NCBI GenBank assembly: GCA_016935525.1
Contig: JAFGQU010000023.1
Coordinates: forward strand, 897 to 64,896
Source of the DNA: Candidatus Omnitrophota bacterium
GTDB lineage: Bacteria; Omnitrophota; Gorgyraeia; Duberdicusellales; 4484-171
DNA length: 64,000 nucleotides
Direction of reading: 5' to 3'
Below, piece by piece: positions 14,016 to 32,706 of this stretch. The notes below the pieces were generated by a model, which saw only the letters and a list, made by a program, of their open reading frames with translations, did no database searches and was not told the DNA's origin. Position 1 is the stretch's first letter; each line of letters opens with the position of its first letter. Both the position numbers and the translations under genes were made by a program.

Positions 14016-14201
14016 TTATAATCTGAAGAAGAATCTCATAAACGGATCGTCAAACTGTCGTTGAGAACGGCGGTAATAAGAGTTGAGCGCGATGAAAAAA
14101 GTCCCGATCATTATCAACAGAAACGCTACAATAAGAGAGAGCAATTGCGGATAGACCGCGATCAAAACACCGGCGACGATAAACGTGATCCCTGCGATCA
14201 T
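14016..14201 (-). CDS. small membrane protein (61 aa), hypothetical
   Basis: Internal ATG preceded by GAAGGAGGAAAT; two hydrophobic helices. Confidence 0.45.
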   Translation of the reverse strand: MIAGITFIVAGVLIAVYPQLLSLIVAFLLIMIGTFFIALNSYYRRSQRQFDDPFMRFFFRL

Positions 14202-14281
14202 ATTTCCTCCTTCAATGAGCAGACGATCTACGGAACAAAGTGATCGTAAATCGTAGTCCGTAAGGACGTCTGCGAATTGAA

Positions 14282-14313
14282 CCCTTGACACTTTTGCACA
14301 AAAGCGTCAAGGG
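14282..14313. promoter_or_regulatory. 32 bp near-perfect palindrome CCCTTGACACTTTTGCACAAAAGCGTCAAGGG (copy A of the duplicated leader module)
   Basis: Read directly; second copy at 31820-31851. Confidence 0.5.
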
Positions 14314-14332
14314 TATACTGCGGTCATACAAC

Positions 14333-15019
14333 TTATATTCGTTTCTCTCTATAAGTTGTGACCTTATTATATTTCTCCAAAAACTTCGCCATATCTTCGG
14401 GCAGATCTATTTCAAACCGTAGGAATTTATGAGTAACCGGATGATAAAACCGTAAATAAAACGCGTGTAATGCCAGCCGCCGGAATTTTACGGGAAAATC
14501 ACGCCCATATGCGTATTTGCGTTCGCCCAGTATCGGATGGCCGATACCCTTTAATTGGATACGTAACTGGTTTGTCCGGCCCGTGAGCGGAATAAGTTCC
14601 AGGACACAGAAATTACGGTACTGGCGCCTCACTCTATATCCGCTATGCGCCGGCTTTGCTTTTTCCCGATACCGTTTACCTTCGCTATCGATGATGGAGC
14701 CTTTCAATATGCCTTTGGGCCTTTTCAACCGGCCCTGGACAAACGCGATATATTTTTTTTCGACTGACCGCTCGCGGAACTGGTTGGAGATCAACGACTG
14801 GATATGGGCACTTTTGGCGTAAATGATCAATCCGGTCGTTTCCCGGTCAAGACGATGACAGGGCAGAGCTTTTTGTTTTTTTTCGCCAAGCTCATCGTTA
14901 AGAAGCGAAGTTAACGTATATTTTTCTTTTTTCGGGCTGGGTTGAACGAGAAGTTTCGCTATTTTATTCAACACGATAAGATGTTCGTCTTCAAAAACTA
15001 TTGTATAAGGTATGTTCAC
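14333..15019 (-). CDS. RluA family pseudouridine synthase
   Basis: HRLDRETTGLIIYAK catalytic Asp motif. Confidence 0.8.
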   Translation of the reverse strand: MNIPYTIVFEDEHLIVLNKIAKLLVQPSPKKEKYTLTSLLNDELGEKKQKALPCHRLDRETTGLIIYAKSAHIQSLISNQFRERSVEKKYIAFVQGRLKRPKGILKGSIIDSEGKRYREKAKPAHSGYRVRRQYRNFCVLELIPLTGRTNQLRIQLKGIGHPILGERKYAYGRDFPVKFRRLALHAFYLRFYHPVTHKFLRFEIDLPEDMAKFLEKYNKVTTYREKRI

Positions 15020-25401: not shown

Positions 25402-25646
25402 AATTGAAATGTCGTCTTACGGATGTCGGTTACGCAGCCCGTATCGGGATTCGTCTTTCGGTTACGATTTTCAAAAAAGCCGTTGCCGTTAACCGATTGG
25501 CGATACGGGCTTCGTCACCGTTTACCGAATGACGAAAGAGTTTATGTGACCTTGCCCCCTGAAATTTATCACTGATAAATTTCGGGGATTCAGTCCCAGG
25601 AATTCTCCGAATTCCACGGGATTTCGCGTTTCGCGTTACGTTCTCT

Positions 25647-26156
25647 TTATAGCCATCCGCATAACGCGAACGCGCAGATGGTTTTCGCATCGATTATTTT
25701 CCCCGTTTTGAACAGGCGGCGGATGAGAGATCTCGTGACCACTTTCGTTACGAGCACCTCATCGTCATCCAGATCTTTTTGACGTTTTATCAGATGTTCG
25801 GCTTTATAAATAGAGATCTTTTCGGTCGAATAGCCCGGGACCGGATAGATCATTCCTAACCGCGTAAACTTTTTCGCGGCGTAACCGGTCTCCTCGATCA
25901 CCTCTCTACGGGCACAGGACAACGCGGATTCTCCTTTATCGATCGTGCCGGCAGGCAATTCATACAGATATTTTGAAATGACCGGACGTAACTGCCGCAA
26001 AATGATCACCGAATCCTTCGCAAGGAAAGGGACAATCAATGCCGCCCCCGGATGACGGACGATTTCCAGCTGCACTTTTCTGCCATGCGGCAGGCGCGCC
26101 CGCCGGGTGACCAGATGGAACAGGCGGCCGTTATAAATACTTTTTTCCTTTGCCAT
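25647..26156 (-). CDS. NUDIX hydrolase (ADP-ribose pyrophosphatase-like)
   Basis: Nudix box GESALSCARREVIEETG. Confidence 0.8.
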   Translation of the reverse strand: MAKEKSIYNGRLFHLVTRRARLPHGRKVQLEIVRHPGAALIVPFLAKDSVIILRQLRPVISKYLYELPAGTIDKGESALSCARREVIEETGYAAKKFTRLGMIYPVPGYSTEKISIYKAEHLIKRQKDLDDDEVLVTKVVTRSLIRRLFKTGKIIDAKTICAFALCGWL

Positions 26157-27904: not shown

Positions 27905-30900
27905 TCATCTTTTCTGTTCTCTTTCTTTTTTACGGTCTTCGATGACTTTCTGAGCAAGCGCTGTCGGTAACTCTACATATTTTGAGAATTCCATGGAACA
28001 TGACGCTCTCCCGCTGCTTAAAGAACGCAATATCGTCATATATCCGAACAGTTCCGAAAGCGGAGCTTCGGCTTTCACTACTTTCAAATTGGCTTTGGAA
28101 TCGATATTGAGGATCTTTCCCCGTTTAGAACAGATGTTTCCGACGATATTACTTACATAATCTTCGGGAGTGGTTATTTCCAGCGACATAGAAGGTTCAA
28201 GCAGTGTCGGCGAACATTTCATGAACCCTTCTTTGAAACATCCGATTGCCGCAAGACGAAAGGCGATATCGGATGAATCGACTTCATGATAGGACCCGTC
28301 GATGAGATTTACATCCACATCGACGACCGGGAATCCGGCAAGTACTCCGCGTTTCATTATCTCCTGGACCCCTTTCTGCACCGACGGGATATAGTTCCTG
28401 GGGATCGATCCTCCGACGATACTGTTCACAAACTTATGCCCTTCCCCGTTGGTAGACGGCGACATCTCTATGACCACATGGCCGTACTGGCCGTGGCCGC
28501 CGGATTGTTTCACGTGTTTATACTCCGCGGTAACCGGTTTGGTGATCGTTTCTTTATAAGCGACTTTCGGCTGCCCTACGCTGGCGTTTACTTTAAATTC
28601 GTTTTTAAGACGGTCAACGATGATCTCTAAATGCAGTTCCCCCATACCCGAAAGGATCGTTTCATCGGTCTCTTCATCAGTATAGACCTGGAAGGTAGGA
28701 TCTTCTTCCATCAATCTCATAAGCGCTTTACCCAGTTTATCCTGATCGGAACGGCTTTCCGGCTGGACACTGATCGAGATGACCGGTGTCGGAAACTCAA
28801 TCGCCTCAAGTATTAACGGGTCATCCTGTGTCGTCAACGTATCCCCAGTGATCGTATTGCTTAAGCCCACCAACGCCACAATTTCTCCGGCATGAGCGTA
28901 TTCTTTATTTTCACGCTGGTTGGCATGCATCTGGACGATCCTCCCGATACGTTCTTTTTTCCCTTTAGTCGCGTTGAGGATATATGACCCCGATTTGATC
29001 ACTCCGGAATAGATCCGGGTATACACGAGTTTCCCGATATGAGGATCGGCTTGTATTTTAAAAGCTACTGCCGCAAGCGGCGCTTTTATATCAGGCGGCC
29101 TCTCGGCGGTTTTTTCCGGGTCATCGGGCAAGGTCCCGCTCACCGCGGGGATATCCAACGGTGCGGGCAAAAACGCGTTTACCGCGTCTAACAGCCGTTG
29201 AACCCCTTTATTTTTCAATGCCGTCCCGCAAAGGATAGGTACCGCTTTATTGGCAACGGTACCCCGGCGGATCGCGGCAATGATCTCTTCTTTAGTAAGT
29301 GACTCCGGTGAGTGAAGATATTTTTCCGTCAACGTCTCATCACAGGCAGCGGCTCTTTCCAGCATGATCTGATGATATTTCTGGGCGGTTTCTTTTGCTT
29401 CATCCGGGATATCTTCGATCGTGAAATCTTTGCCTTGCGAAGAATCATCGAAGATGACCGCTTTCATCTCGATCACATCGATAATACCCCGGAAATTCTC
29501 TTCCTGTCCTAACGGGATATTTATCGGGATGACGTTCGCTCCGAGTTCCTGTTCGATACTTTCCATTACGGAAAAGAAATGCGCGCCGGTACGGTCCATC
29601 TTATTTACAAAAGCGATCTTGGGGACATGATATTTTTCCGATTGCCGCCATACGGTCTCTGATTGAGGCTGTACGCCGCCGACGGCGCAGAACACGGCAA
29701 CGGCACCGTCAAGGACCCGCAGGCTCCGTTCTACCTCGACGGTAAAATCGACGTGTCCGGGAGTATCGATGATGTTAATACGATTACCTTTCCAGAAACA
29801 GGTAGTTGCCGCGGACGTGATGGTGATCCCGCGTTCCTGTTCCTGTTTCATCCAGTCCATCTGGGCTTTCCCTTCATGGACTTCTCCGATCTTATGAGAC
29901 CGGCCGGTATAAAAAAGGATCCGTTCGGTGACCGTAGTCTTTCCGGCATCGATATGGGCCATGATCCCGATATTACGGATCTTGGTGAGATCGACATCAG
30001 GTATATCGATCTCTTCTTTTTTCGTCAAAGTCTCTTCCGGTTGCTCCTCCTGCGGTTCGGCCTCTTGTGCTACGGCAGGCTCCTCTTCCTGTTCCGGTTC
30101 TGGGTGAGAAGGGACAACTTCGGCCGGCGCGGGTTGTTCCGGAGACGCCTCTTCCTGGGTTTGAGTTTCGGCAGGCTGAGCATCATCTTCCGTCACCGTT
30201 TGAGGCTCAGCCGATGAGACGCTACCGGCTGCTTCATCCGGGGCCGCAGCTTGTTCAGATTCCGGAGATTCGCTTACTTCTTCTATCTCTTCTTCGACCG
30301 CCTCTCCCAACGCCTGGCGTTTTTTGATCAGTTCATTTTTAAGACGGATCCGTTCCATATCCAGCTTCTTGATATCCTGTTCTCTGGCCTGTACTTCCCG
30401 GGTCTTGATATCAAGATGGAACTTTGCTTCTTCATATTCGGCTTTAAGGGCTTCATGCTCTTCGGCGGCGACCCAGGCGACCTGTTCATCTTTTTTACTG
30501 AGCTCTTTACTTAACTGGAAAACTCTTGTCGCCTGTTCTCTTATTTTCTCTTTATGCCGGGATATTTCTTCGTTAAGGCCGCGGATCTCGGCATTTTTAT
30601 TGCGGATCTCCCCCTCCAGGTCTTCGGCCCGTTGAGTCAAAGTACGTACTTCGGTCGCCAGTTTCACGTTCTTGGAAAATTCCATCTCCAGCAGTTTTTC
30701 TTTTTCAAGATATTTCTCTTTGGTCTCGGCCATCTGTTCGCTGGTCCGTTTAAGCATCTCCTGGGATTTACTCACCCATTCTTCCCGCTGGCCGAATTCT
30801 TCGCGAAGTTTATCTTCGATTTTCTGAGCTTCTTTGATCGTATCTTTTAAAGAAGCATATTCTTTTTTCAAGTTCTGGAACTTCTCATGAAGCGATTTAT

Positions 30901-31075
30901 ATTCGGATTTAAGGGTATGGAAATTCGTCTCGATCGCCTTGGCGCGGACGGTTCCTTTTTTATGCTGTTCGGCTTCTTTTGACGAGGTAACCATCGCATA
31001 GACGACGACCCCGATACCGATGAACACCACGGCTCCTACCCCGACCATCATTTTAAGTGAGACTAATTCGACCAT
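27905..31075 (-). CDS. elongation factor G homolog with about 350 aa N-terminal extension (TM helix, K/E-rich coiled coil, acidic Pro/Glu/Gln-rich linker)
   Basis: [19 protein letters not shown]-motifs; all five EF-G domains incl. domain IV loop SYHEVDSS; N-terminal [21 protein letters not shown] hydrophobic helix; not in an rpsL-rpsG-fusA-tuf context. Confidence 0.85.
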
Positions 31076-31367: not shown

Positions 31368-31751
31368 TTAAAATCGGCCCTGGATATCGTTGATGATCTC
31401 AAATGCCAGGTCAAGATTAGGCAGTGCCCGGCGCCGCGCGCTTACGTCGACCCATATCGAAGTATCTCCCGAATCATAGGTCACCCGGGCGACATACGCG
31501 GCAACCGAAGTATCACCGATACGGGCGCGGATAACTCCGTCACTTTCATTTTCGAAAATGACCTGTCCGCGCTCCGAAAGAACTGACCGGGTCTCTTCCC
31601 AGGCCTGTTCGATAGTAGTATCGAGGTCTAACCGTACCGTATCGACACTCAATACCAACCCTCCGGCAACACCGGTGCCTACAAGAAGCGGGATACAGCC
31701 CGTGAGCGAGAAAAGAAGACAGAGACTTAAAAGACAATGTGTGATCTTCAT
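31368..31751 (-). CDS. lipoprotein, hypothetical (DUF3568-like)
   Basis: Start at the ATG preceded by GAAGGAGGATAAA; lipobox LTGC. Confidence 0.5.
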   Translation of the reverse strand: MKITHCLLSLCLLFSLTGCIPLLVGTGVAGGLVLSVDTVRLDLDTTIEQAWEETRSVLSERGQVIFENESDGVIRARIGDTSVAAYVARVTYDSGDTSIWVDVSARRRALPNLDLAFEIINDIQGRF

Positions 31752-31819
31752 TTTATCCTCCTTCAATGAGCGCGCAACTTATGGAGCAAAGCGATCATAA
31801 GTTGCCTGCGCGAATTGAA

Positions 31820-31851
31820 CCCTTGACGATTTTGCACAAAATTGTCAAGGG
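31820..31851. promoter_or_regulatory. 32 bp palindrome CCCTTGACGATTTTGCACAAAATTGTCAAGGG (copy B of the duplicated leader module)
   Basis: Read directly; paralogous to 14282-14313. Confidence 0.5.
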
Positions 31852-31932
31852 TGTAATTCGGTCATACCACTTATGTTCCCTACAATTCATAAGTGGTGAC
31901 CTCATTACATTCTACCTCTGTCCCTGTTTTTT

Positions 31933-32706
31933 TCAAGAGCCGGATGTAAGCCGGCGTTTAAACTCTTCCCAGGGAAACTTTTTTCCGGGGCAATTGGTTT
32001 TCGCGCCGCGCACCTGGCCATGGCCTAAAATGTTTTTTGGCGAAATATGATAGTAGTCTTTAAGGCGCCGGACCAGGTAGATCAACGAATCCATCTGCCG
32101 GGACGTCACTTGCTCGATATCAAAATTCCCTACCAGACAGATACCGATCGAACGATAATTCATCTTTGACGCTTTACAATGAGCGCCGACTTCCTGTTTA
32201 AGCCAGCGCGGCGAGACTTCTATCTGTCCGTCGGTTTTTTCCAACGTTCCGTTATCGATCACGAAATGGTACCCTAACCCCCGATAAAATCCGCGTTTTT
32301 TATGACCTTCATTAAAACAGAGGGCATTGCCTTCATCGGTCGCGCTGTGATGGATAATGATGTATTTCCATGTATCCGAAGGATATAACGGGACTACCGG
32401 TTTGATCTGAGCTGCCTGGGGGATAACGAGTTTTTGACCGATAGAAAGGCGATCGGGTTTTTTGAGCTTATTTTTTTCGATGATACTTTCCATGGACACA
32501 TCATACATCTTTGCCAGACGCCACACCGTCTCACCCGGCGCGACGACATGAGAGGCATCATAACGGGCTGAAGGCACCTCTTGCGGCGGCGGGATAGCCG
32601 GGTAAGTCTTAGGAGCATATACCGGCGGTCGAGGCGATATCCGGGCGCAGGAAGCACACGTAAGCGCCAACACCGATAACAATATGAGGTAACTTAGTTT
32701 TTTCAT
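31933..32706 (-). CDS. N-acetylmuramoyl-L-alanine amidase (amidase_2/PGRP domain) with LysM domain; lipoprotein
   Basis: LysM (VVAPGETVWRLAKMY..GQKLVIP) plus IIIHHSAT..HFVID..GAHC amidase_2 motifs. Confidence 0.8.
   Translation of the reverse strand: MKKLSYLILLSVLALTCASCARISPRPPVYAPKTYPAIPPPQEVPSARYDASHVVAPGETVWRLAKMYDVSMESIIEKNKLKKPDRLSIGQKLVIPQAAQIKPVVPLYPSDTWKYIIIHHSATDEGNALCFNEGHKKRGFYRGLGYHFVIDNGTLEKTDGQIEVSPRWLKQEVGAHCKASKMNYRSIGICLVGNFDIEQVTSRQMDSLIYLVRRLKDYYHISPKNILGHGQVRGAKTNCPGKKFPWEEFKRRLTSGS

Follow-up and report, generated by a model that had tools for sequence, protein, structure and literature searches.

We analysed a stretch of 64,000 nucleotides of DNA from a Candidatus Omnitrophota bacterium (assembly GCA_016935525.1, contig JAFGQU010000023.1, positions 897 to 64,896; the whole stretch is hereafter called the window), in which two related leader modules, copy A and copy B, lie directly upstream of two small genes. 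Both modules very probably belong to a dispersed family of structured elements, so far found in Omnitrophota only. Members of the family measure about 150-260 nt and consist of two homologous hairpin units, L and R, inverted relative to each other, with a GC-rich hairpin of variable make-up, H2, in the centre. The further proposal, a role of the family's RNA at gene boundaries, has in our judgement about an even chance on the sequence evidence. The reading that we favour joins family membership with this boundary role, and as a compromise between the two parts we consider it, as a whole, rather probable.

The two modules in the window

Both downstream genes are on the minus strand and the modules are read in gene sense from 14371 to 14199 (copy A) and from 31909 to 31749 (copy B). 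An earlier note on this DNA had described a duplicated leader of about 130 bp upstream of the two genes. The alignment of the copies bore this out and extended the homology to 14371 and 31909; when the wider regions were aligned the mean column identity was 81% over 227 columns. The 32-bp palindrome reported for both copies, CCCTTGAC NN TTTTGTGCAAAA NN GTCAAGGG, was found exactly twice in the window (14282-14313 and 31820-31851), and none was expected from 100 dinucleotide-preserving shuffles. The common ribosome-binding site (RBS) was likewise recovered, as an exact 16-mer, GCTCATTGAAGGAGGA, at 14205-14220 and 31756-31771. Among the strings quoted at that time the RBS was given in gene sense; all others were written on the plus strand and are antisense to the genes. 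As a further correction, the start codons were placed at 14201-14199 and 31751-31749.

Pairing in the distal hairpin had been said to be kept by compensatory changes, and comparison of the stems of copy A (ACAACTTATA/TATAAGTTGT, 14328-14359) and copy B (CCACTTATG/CATAAGTGG, 31867-31896) did reveal compensatory differences. A second covarying hairpin, located between the palindrome and the RBS, had been overlooked. Its stems are ACGATTTACG/CGTAGATCGT in copy A and GCAACTTATG/CATAAGTTGC in copy B, and its loop AUCRCUUUGYUC is the block that had been reported as G.A.CAAAG.GATC.TAA. When folded as RNA, each module gives a row of three hairpins (z scores -6.4 and -7.2 for the window copies); the elements that were folded are very stable, at z scores from -6.4 to -7.2.

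Units were scored with R1, a covariance model (CM) built from R units only. Both window R units are in its seed alignment, so that their scores of 92.1 and 80.4 bits are partly circular. The parts of the two copies, including the Shine-Dalgarno (SD) boxes, are as follows.

14211-14371, minus strand: the whole of copy A, 161 nt, made up of L unit, H2 and R unit and flanked by an RluA-like gene and a 61-aa gene; R1 hits at 14199-14284 (minus strand, 80.4 bits) and 14311-14383 (plus strand, 52.2 bits), alignment to copy B, absent from the orthologous sites in loci L004 and L007
14311-14371, minus strand: L unit of copy A, inverted homologue of the R unit, with the upper stem ACAACTTATA/TATAAGTTGT at 14328-14359; R1 and L-unit covariation
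14282-14313, no strand: H2 of copy A, the palindrome CCCTTGAC GC TTTTGTGCAAAA GT GTCAAGGG; same H2 class in the same slot at 8 other loci
14211-14284, minus strand: R unit of copy A, GGG-UUCAAU-UC-GCAG-(mini-hairpin 14256-14267)-ACGAUUUACG-loop AUCACUUUGUUC-CGUAGAUCGU-CUGC-UC-AUUGAA; R1 80.4 bits, E 1.2e-14
14199-14210, minus strand: SD GGAGG (14206-14210) directly after the R unit of copy A, and ATG (14199-14201)
31762-31909, minus strand: the whole of copy B, 148 nt, made up of L unit, H2 and R unit and flanked by a promoter-like site and a 127-aa lipoprotein gene; R1 hits at 31750-31822 (minus strand, 92.1 bits) and 31849-31921 (plus strand, 53.5 bits)
31849-31909, minus strand: L unit of copy B, with the upper stem CCACTTATG/CATAAGTGG at 31867-31896 and the basal helix UGUAAU/AUUACA; R1 and covariation
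31820-31851, no strand: H2 of copy B, CCCTTGAC AA TTTTGTGCAAAA TC GTCAAGGG
31762-31822, minus strand: R unit of copy B, GGG-UUCAAU-UC-GCGC-GCAACUUAUG-loop AUCGCUUUGCUC-CAUAAGUUGC-GCGC-UC-AUUGAA; R1 92.1 bits, E 4e-17
31749-31761, minus strand: SD GGAGG (31757-31761) and ATG (31749-31751) of copy B

Distribution of the family

A search for further copies had been suggested in the earlier note, which named their absence as a refutation; dozens were found in related genomes, and the module passes that test. The loci fetched in the survey carry labels between L002 and L050. A gapped pattern derived from three copies and built on the 3' hairpin matched five GTDB species genomes, all Omnitrophota, among them the complete genome of Candidatus Velamenicoccus archaeovorus LiM. 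In these five genomes the element precedes rpmE, a response regulator gene, mreB, glgA and a YqeY-like gene. A fixed-gap pattern matched 26 metagenome stretches, 23 of them true as judged from the stem and the upstream GGNTCAATTC; the remaining three were chance matches in coding sequence. That a pattern derived from the window copies recovered other genomes is independent support for their membership of the family.

The fetched loci total about 294 kb, and R1 detected 65 hairpin units in them (E <= 1e-4). The genes downstream of the elements include rpmE, mreB, glgA, rny, hppA, secY, rho, prfA, aroA, rpsO, ruvA, ruvC, hisC and tig. Secondary copies were frequent in the fetched flanks: three elements lie in 9 kb of L034, and six lie in a 20-kb stretch of L045, where they stand ahead of rho, rpmE, prfA and aroA. 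Tandem arrays of H2 plus R were found in L026 (3450-3620) and L029 (330-640 and 2590-2900), and one R unit of L026 contains an H2-type hairpin where the optional mini-hairpin would be. A tRNA-Met gene in L022 is closely followed by an element (764-1097), and a direct repeat of at least 62 nt, comprising the tRNA 3' end and the sequence downstream of it, restarts right after UCAUUGAA, before the contig ends; the repeat reflects a tandem duplication or else an arrangement of the att kind.

The palindrome pattern CTTGACNNTTTTGNNCAAAANNGTCAAG gave no match in the genome or metagenome collections. Its 2-nt loop is specific to this genome, and patterns of the 3' hairpin worked instead. The one match in the viral collection (L050) showed neither the stem nor a CM hit and was taken as a chance match. 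Two more distant DUF3096 loci, L011 and L012, were rejected as carriers of the element; they contain a different long inverted repeat.

In a scan of the window against Rfam 15 a tRNA was the only match at gathering score, and no family matched the module. Permissive Rfam scans of both window copies and two related elements returned hairpin-like miRNA and snoRNA chance matches only, far below gathering. In the literature searched, which included Omnitrophota genome papers, we found nothing relevant on RNA motifs or palindromic repeats of Omnitrophota, or on GIY-YIG genes with inverted repeats. The element family is apparently undescribed.

Anatomy and covariation

Units are about 60-75 nt long in the alignments. 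The R unit consists of helices P1a, P1b, P2 and P3, with the conserved strands GGNUCAAUUC ... UC-helix-UCC ... UCAUUGAA, and both window copies contain all of them. The L halves are outside the R1 seed and were nevertheless found by R1 on the opposite strand, at 31849-31921 (plus strand, 53.5 bits) and 14311-14383 (plus strand, 52.2 bits), in both cases with E about 1e-8, as were opposite-strand L halves in other loci.

To describe the R unit we drew its structure by hand (P1a UUCAAU/AUUGAA, a 2x2 loop UC/UC, P1b of 4 bp, P2 of 10 bp, a loop (U)UC/UCC and an apical mini-helix) and tested it on 26 distinct R units. Of 570 cells 97.0% were paired, compared with 31-38% in slid controls; changes on both sides occurred at 11 of the 22 pairs, in 89 cells, and the covariation score was reached by none of 500 shuffles. 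RNAalifold, run on the first eight sequences, independently gave the same R-unit helices. In the L units (n = 23) 96.7% of cells were paired (slid controls 23-41%), with both-side changes at 17 of 20 pairs. The basal helix of L covaries freely (UCAAAU/AUUUGA, AUAAGU/ACUUAU, GUAAGU/ACUUAC), that of R is near-fixed (UUCAAU/AUUGAA or UUUAAU/AUUAAA), and the apical loop can be replaced by extended stems or UUCG-capped helices.

H2 was always a hairpin with a CCC/GGG base, while its sequence and length varied, from 32 nt to more than 220 nt. It falls into recurrent classes. The CCTTGAC..GTCAAGG class was found in the same slot at eight other loci with its arms about 8 to 32 nt apart, and the 32-bp palindrome of the window would be a member of this recurrent class and not an operator. 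The earlier note had read the module as a duplicated promoter/operator/leader cassette or cis-acting RNA; in its fuller form, this reading would make the cassette private to two small envelope genes and the palindrome the operator of a dimeric regulator. A structured, duplicated leader module located in cis is what stands of this; the promoter, the operator and the two-gene cassette do not. Both window copies do precede small envelope proteins, and the palindrome holds TTGAC on both strands. Yet the same element stands before dozens of unrelated genes in other genomes, no sigma-70-like promoter was predicted inside either copy, and the stem covariation points to single-strand folding and not to a sequence-specific duplex site. 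The palindrome slot is filled elsewhere by unrelated GC-rich stems of varying length, and the varying arm distance together with these unrelated stems rules out an operator of fixed geometry. The private cassette is thus largely refuted by the family survey and we regard it as barely credible.

Which strand folds was addressed by counting G.U against A.C cells in the mRNA sense. R units gave a ratio of 10:3, L units one of 10:2, and the two pooled 20:5 (one-sided binomial p about 0.002, computed by hand). This is suggestive of folding of the mRNA-sense strand, with evidence that is confined to the units. Two alternative conformers both occurred as minimum free energy (MFE) structures: P1a in copy A, and an H2 extension, GAAUU/AAUUC, in copy B and L006.

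Several further readings of the sequence were tried and rejected. Complementarity between the L and R apical loops, a candidate kissing loop, is a residue of the inverted repeat and was inconsistent across copies, including both window copies. Sequestration of the SD by the R apical loop would involve 4 bp only and is geometrically impossible with the basal helix formed. Attempts to read the conserved strands as tRNA-like, attC, dif, sigma-54 or sigma-70 sequences failed on sequence or spacing. For an integron attC site, GTTCAAT/ATTGAAC deviate at the fourth position from R'' RYYYAAC and R' GTTRRRY, and the flanking genes are core housekeeping genes.

Placement at gene boundaries

The neighbours of the two window copies are listed here.

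14016-14201, minus strand: small membrane protein of 61 aa, DUF3096-like (25.2 bits, cut-off 23.3), encoded downstream of copy A
14333-15019, minus strand: pseudouridine synthase of the RluA type, encoded upstream of copy A; the L unit contributes the stop and the 9-10 codons before it
31368-31751, minus strand: 127-aa lipoprotein with lipobox LTGC, DUF3568-like, downstream of copy B (DUF3568 22.4 bits, just under the cut-off of 23.2)
31909-31936, minus strand: sigma-70-like promoter TTGAAA-16-TAGAAT, directly upstream of copy B; flank conserved in the relative L002

The downstream proteins are unrelated, as had been stated. The RluA-like open reading frame (ORF) ends with TAA at 14333-14335, within the L hairpin of copy A, and the gene upstream of copy B encodes a LysM-amidase. 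Copy A had no predicted promoter upstream.

Across the family, the start of a codirectional ORF of at least 50 aa was found within -3 to +15 nt of the R end in 33 of 42 cases. With a stricter start criterion the count was 26 of 42 R ends, versus 5.5% at random positions in the same loci, and L ends faced a gene start in only 2 of 23 cases. In all scored cases the element faced the downstream gene in the same way. Where an SD is present, as is usual, GGAGG follows directly on the R end UCAUUGAA without a gap; counted from UCAUUGAA, the ATG of copy A lies at +9 and that of copy B at +10. On the other side, the stop of a codirectional ORF lay within -23 to +39 nt of the element start for 16 of 23 L ends, often as TAA or TGA inside GUAAGUGA or UCAAAUGA, and a good -10 or -35 box was found directly upstream of the element in copy B, L015, L020, L033 and L040. 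With a stop or promoter directly upstream and a start directly downstream, the element fills the whole intercistronic spacer or the whole 5' untranslated region (UTR), and it would thus be transcribed as part of the mRNA.

At some loci the start codon itself abuts the element. An AUG without SD follows 0-1 nt after the R unit at hisC, ruvA and ruvC (L034), and overlaps the R-unit end, again without SD, at secY (L025), prfA (L045) and tig (L037). These sites are L034 3587-3682, 6015-6092 and 6644-6715, L025 4143-4213, L045 17173-17245 and L037 1832-1931. Their sequence points to SD-independent or leaderless-type initiation beside the hairpin. In two GIY-YIG-bearing copies (L014 5925-5945 and L045 9920-9940) the left end reads GGAGGTCAAATGA, an SD-like box plus ATG. 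This ATG opens an ORF of 14-18 codons across the L hairpin, an arrangement that is not general across copies.

The position of H2 after the upstream gene, its strong GC-rich stem and the moderately U-rich 3' flank UUCAAUU could suggest that H2 is an intrinsic terminator of that gene, with the flanking hairpins as unrelated stabilisers. We consider this very improbable. A terminator scan found no such site, a GC-rich stem of at least 5 pairs followed by a T-run, at either copy. A promoter directly upstream of the L unit in copy B, L015, L020, L033 and L040 puts H2 inside the 5' UTR, and the interval from H2 to the SD is too short to hold a promoter.

Orthologous sites and turnover

The junction between rluA and the DUF3096-like gene was compared in three relatives. 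In L004, where the small protein is 87% identical, the rluA stop is directly followed by the RBS and the site is free of the element; the same contiguous stop and RBS, again element-free, were found in L007 (59% identity). At the same junction L006 (61% identity) carries a module variant with a quite different central palindrome, CCCCGCCC...GGGCGGGG, which keeps GGGTTCAATTC, the hairpin with loop TTCACTTTGTTC, and TTCATTGAA ahead of the SD. The element is thus present or absent at one orthologous junction, and the 3' hairpin is its most conserved part. At the orthologue of the copy-B locus (L002, 900-1000) the same promoter is followed by a leader of only about 80 nt with the fragments ATTCGCAGA ... 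TCTGCG ... AGGAG. We rejected L002 as a clean empty site; remnants are present in the leader and there is no clean insertion boundary, which suggests decay or partial deletion and not a site that was never occupied.

Identity between R units was 73% within a genome and 76% between genomes, and that between L units was 67% in both comparisons; L units were 66% identical to their own R unit and 65% to other R units. No sign of recent bursts is seen in these values, in which the between-genome identity is inflated by seed bias, and pairing is kept in diverged copies. The H2 arms behave differently from the units in being near-identical between copies of one genome, with 28 of 32 positions identical between copies A and B and near-identity also within the L028 and L032 pairs. 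A target-site duplication is inseparable from the conserved ends UGAAG...UUGAAG.

A nested GIY-YIG nuclease gene

An ORF of 76-79 aa encoding a GIY-YIG nuclease was found inside H2 of the class CCCAGCACTAATTTT..AAAATTAGTGCTGGG at five distinct loci (L014/L038, L044, L045/L046, L047 and L048), with the following coordinates.

L014, 6025-6261: nested GIY-YIG ORF
L044, 10001-10240: nested GIY-YIG ORF
L045, 10001-10240: nested GIY-YIG ORF
L047, 10001-10231: nested GIY-YIG ORF
L048, 6001-6237: nested GIY-YIG ORF

The ATG comes directly after the 5' arm CCCAGCACTAATTTT and the stop TAA, followed by AATTAGTGCTGGG, overlaps the 3' arm; the ORF lacks its own SD. In L016, L017 and L028 the H2 hairpin belongs to the same class but contains no ORF; ORF-less H2 sites read CCCAGCAC..GTGCTGGG. 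The protein family comprised 89 clusters at E <= 1e-5, and those clusters with a named source were nearly all from Omnitrophota. The NCBIfam model for group I intron endonucleases scored 17.1 bits, against a cut-off of 56. On a Candidatus Taylorbacteria contig (L049, 540-800) the same ORF, with the same inverted repeats (CCCAGCACTTATTTTA..TAAAATAAGTGCTGGG), lies upstream of nusA, without L or R units, which means that the nuclease cassette also exists as a stand-alone unit outside Omnitrophota. Most simply, the cassette would be a self-contained guest of the H2 slot, and the GIY-YIG gene is probably not the element's own mobility gene.

A serious rival to an RNA-level role, if an unlikely one in our estimate, is that the family is purely selfish DNA resembling miniature inverted-repeat transposable elements (MITEs), mobilised in trans by the nested nuclease, with the hairpins as recognition structures for mobility and the boundary placement reflecting tolerated insertion sites in compact genomes. 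The inverted-repeat build, the tandem arrays, the empty orthologous sites in relatives, the near-identical H2 arms within a genome and the existence of ORF-bearing and precisely ORF-less versions with the same arms all fit this explanation. The units, however, are no more alike within than between genomes while about 97% of their stem cells are paired, which is not what recent bursts and subsequent decay would leave. If insertions were merely tolerated, either orientation would be permitted, but the orientation is uniform and the R end lies within a few nt of the start codon. The cassette of L049, with its own repeats and without L or R units, argues for a nested guest and against the element's own transposase, and we know of no GIY-YIG transposase.

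Comparison with known elements

The closest known kinds are the REP/BIME/REPIN, ERIC and Correia elements. Five traits set the Omnitrophota family apart from them: fixed orientation, abutment on the SD or start codon, supply of stop codons, a phylum-wide consensus and the nested GIY-YIG gene.

REP, BIME and REPIN elements of Enterobacteria and Pseudomonas are likewise built of short, imperfectly palindromic hairpin units in inverted pairs, with some tandem clusters, lie in transcribed intergenic spacers of operons and are tied to a small nuclease-type gene. REP units, however, are 20-40 nt long with a 5' GTAG-type tetranucleotide, whereas the Omnitrophota units measure about 60-75 nt and have two conserved internal loops; no GTAG-type head was seen in the aligned Omnitrophota units, although no search was aimed at one. 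REP sequences lie 3' of genes and are species-specific, while the Omnitrophota element is fixed in orientation, abuts the SD or start and has a consensus common to a phylum. In REPINs the RAYT gene, for a Y1 transposase, is flanked by REPs, whereas the only associated ORF seen with the Omnitrophota element is the centrally nested GIY-YIG ORF.

ERIC/IRU sequences, enterobacterial imperfect palindromes of about 127 bp, resemble the element in size class, in their restriction to transcribed intergenic regions, in conservation across genera and in tolerating internal insertions at fixed points, and they are thought to work via mRNA structure. They share no sequence relation with it, occur in both orientations and are not tied to a start codon. 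We know of no ORF nested in ERIC.

Correia elements, the MITEs of Neisseria, are inverted-repeat elements of about 100-150 bp, often located just upstream of genes and co-transcribed with them, and we count as a further likeness that RNase III acts on the hairpin RNA, which alters expression of the gene downstream. Their outward promoters, IHF site and TA target duplications are not evident in the Omnitrophota element, and they lack covarying sub-hairpins and an SD at the element end.

A small GIY-YIG ORF in the H2 loop, bounded by the arms, and ORF-less versions of the same hairpin recall homing-endonuclease genes in loops of structured RNA, such as I-TevI in group I introns, and the free-standing GIY-YIG Seg genes of T4. 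In contrast to group I introns, the Omnitrophota element has no P1-P9 core and no Rfam intron hit; in contrast to I-TevI and Seg, the Omnitrophota protein of 76-79 aa is a catalytic domain only, without a DNA-binding domain. An analogy can also be drawn to the RNase III hairpins between the early genes of T7: in both cases long, conserved hairpins that contain internal loops separate two cistrons and end shortly before the second RBS, and we infer that cleavage in an internal loop would leave a short, SD-bearing leader.

Other features of the window

25540-25691, minus strand: possible degenerate third element, low confidence; a unit match in L orientation beside a CCCC..GGGG palindrome (R1 19.5 bits, E 0.11)

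This site lies between a NUDIX gene and a DUF456-like gene. The weak R1 match is on the strand opposite to the flanking genes, as expected of an L unit, beside the palindrome CCCCGAAATTTATCA-G-TGATAAATTTCAGGGG, and the site may be a decayed third element. At 27905-31075 (minus strand) the window encodes an EF-G-like protein of 1056 aa with an N-terminal extension of about 370 aa, which has a hydrophobic start followed by a coiled-coil-like and acidic low-complexity stretch. Its orthologue in L002 is 1074 aa long, from which we conclude that the extension is conserved.

Proposed function and significance

In the boundary role that we favour, the element RNA would act as a cistron-boundary signal, with the L and R hairpins bracketing the boundary. 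The weak basal helix of R, UUCAAU/AUUGAA, is predicted to pair the A/U-rich stretch directly 5' of the SD, and the same UUCAAUUC strand could compete for the GAAUU upstream of H2 (AAUUC/GAAUU). This competition between helices may set or modulate translation initiation of the downstream gene, and could insulate its translation or couple it to that of the upstream gene. A ribosome terminating inside the L unit would melt the L basal helix and could drive such a switch. Processing or stability of the downstream mRNA would probably be affected as well, the long hairpins with internal loops resembling RNase III-type processing sites. The family would have spread by a mobility mechanism, its copies now being kept individually.

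A related possibility is that the elements are regulatory leaders, either riboswitches or sites for a protein or small RNA, with a global factor reading the internal loops UC/UC and UUC/UCC ahead of many genes. The conserved unpaired nucleotides within covarying helices, the position directly 5' of the SD and the alternative helices around UUCAAUUC are in line with it. We still judge it improbable. The downstream genes are functionally unrelated housekeeping genes and the density, up to six elements in 20 kb of L045, does not suit a specific regulon. The apical loop is replaceable, no conserved core resembling a ligand pocket is evident, and there is no Rfam match. The unrelated downstream genes and the replaceable apical loop also led us to reject classification as a riboswitch.

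Several observations weigh against the boundary role. The palindromic build, the tandem arrays, the patchy occupancy of orthologous sites and the nested nuclease gene fit a selfish DNA element. Nine of the 42 R ends have no detectable gene start, and three of these are followed by a TTGAC or TTGAT box resembling a -35 element. The seed loci were chosen by near-consensus R-unit patterns, a bias that makes the R unit look more invariant and raises the identity between genomes. By MFE, 10 of 15 whole elements were more stable in sense, a difference between strands that was not significant (p = 0.12), and no strand bias was found in H2, so that the strand argument rests on the 25 wobble or mismatch cells.

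More tentatively, and with clearly less confidence than in the boundary role as such, we propose that the family is a phylum-specific structured RNA of mobile origin which may serve as a general 'punctuation' of cistron boundaries. It would provide the stop context of the upstream gene and the initiation region of the downstream gene, and may either couple or insulate the two by means of helices that compete, or undergo cleavage into mRNAs with a short leader or none, while H2 would be a landing slot for a minimal GIY-YIG homing gene.

If the family were selfish, its strict orientation and its targeting of junctions would still call for a mechanism beyond those known today. If the RNA-level reading is true, a large share of the gene starts in an uncultured phylum of ultra-small bacteria would have one and the same structured leader. 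For annotation the family would be a new and easily modelled RNA; gene callers now run ORFs into the element. It would be a natural example of a standardised context for translation initiation and a tractable system for studying how dispersed repeats become fixed parts of operons. The minimal GIY-YIG gene between the hairpin arms is apparently a homing-type gene that has a repeat family as its landing pad.

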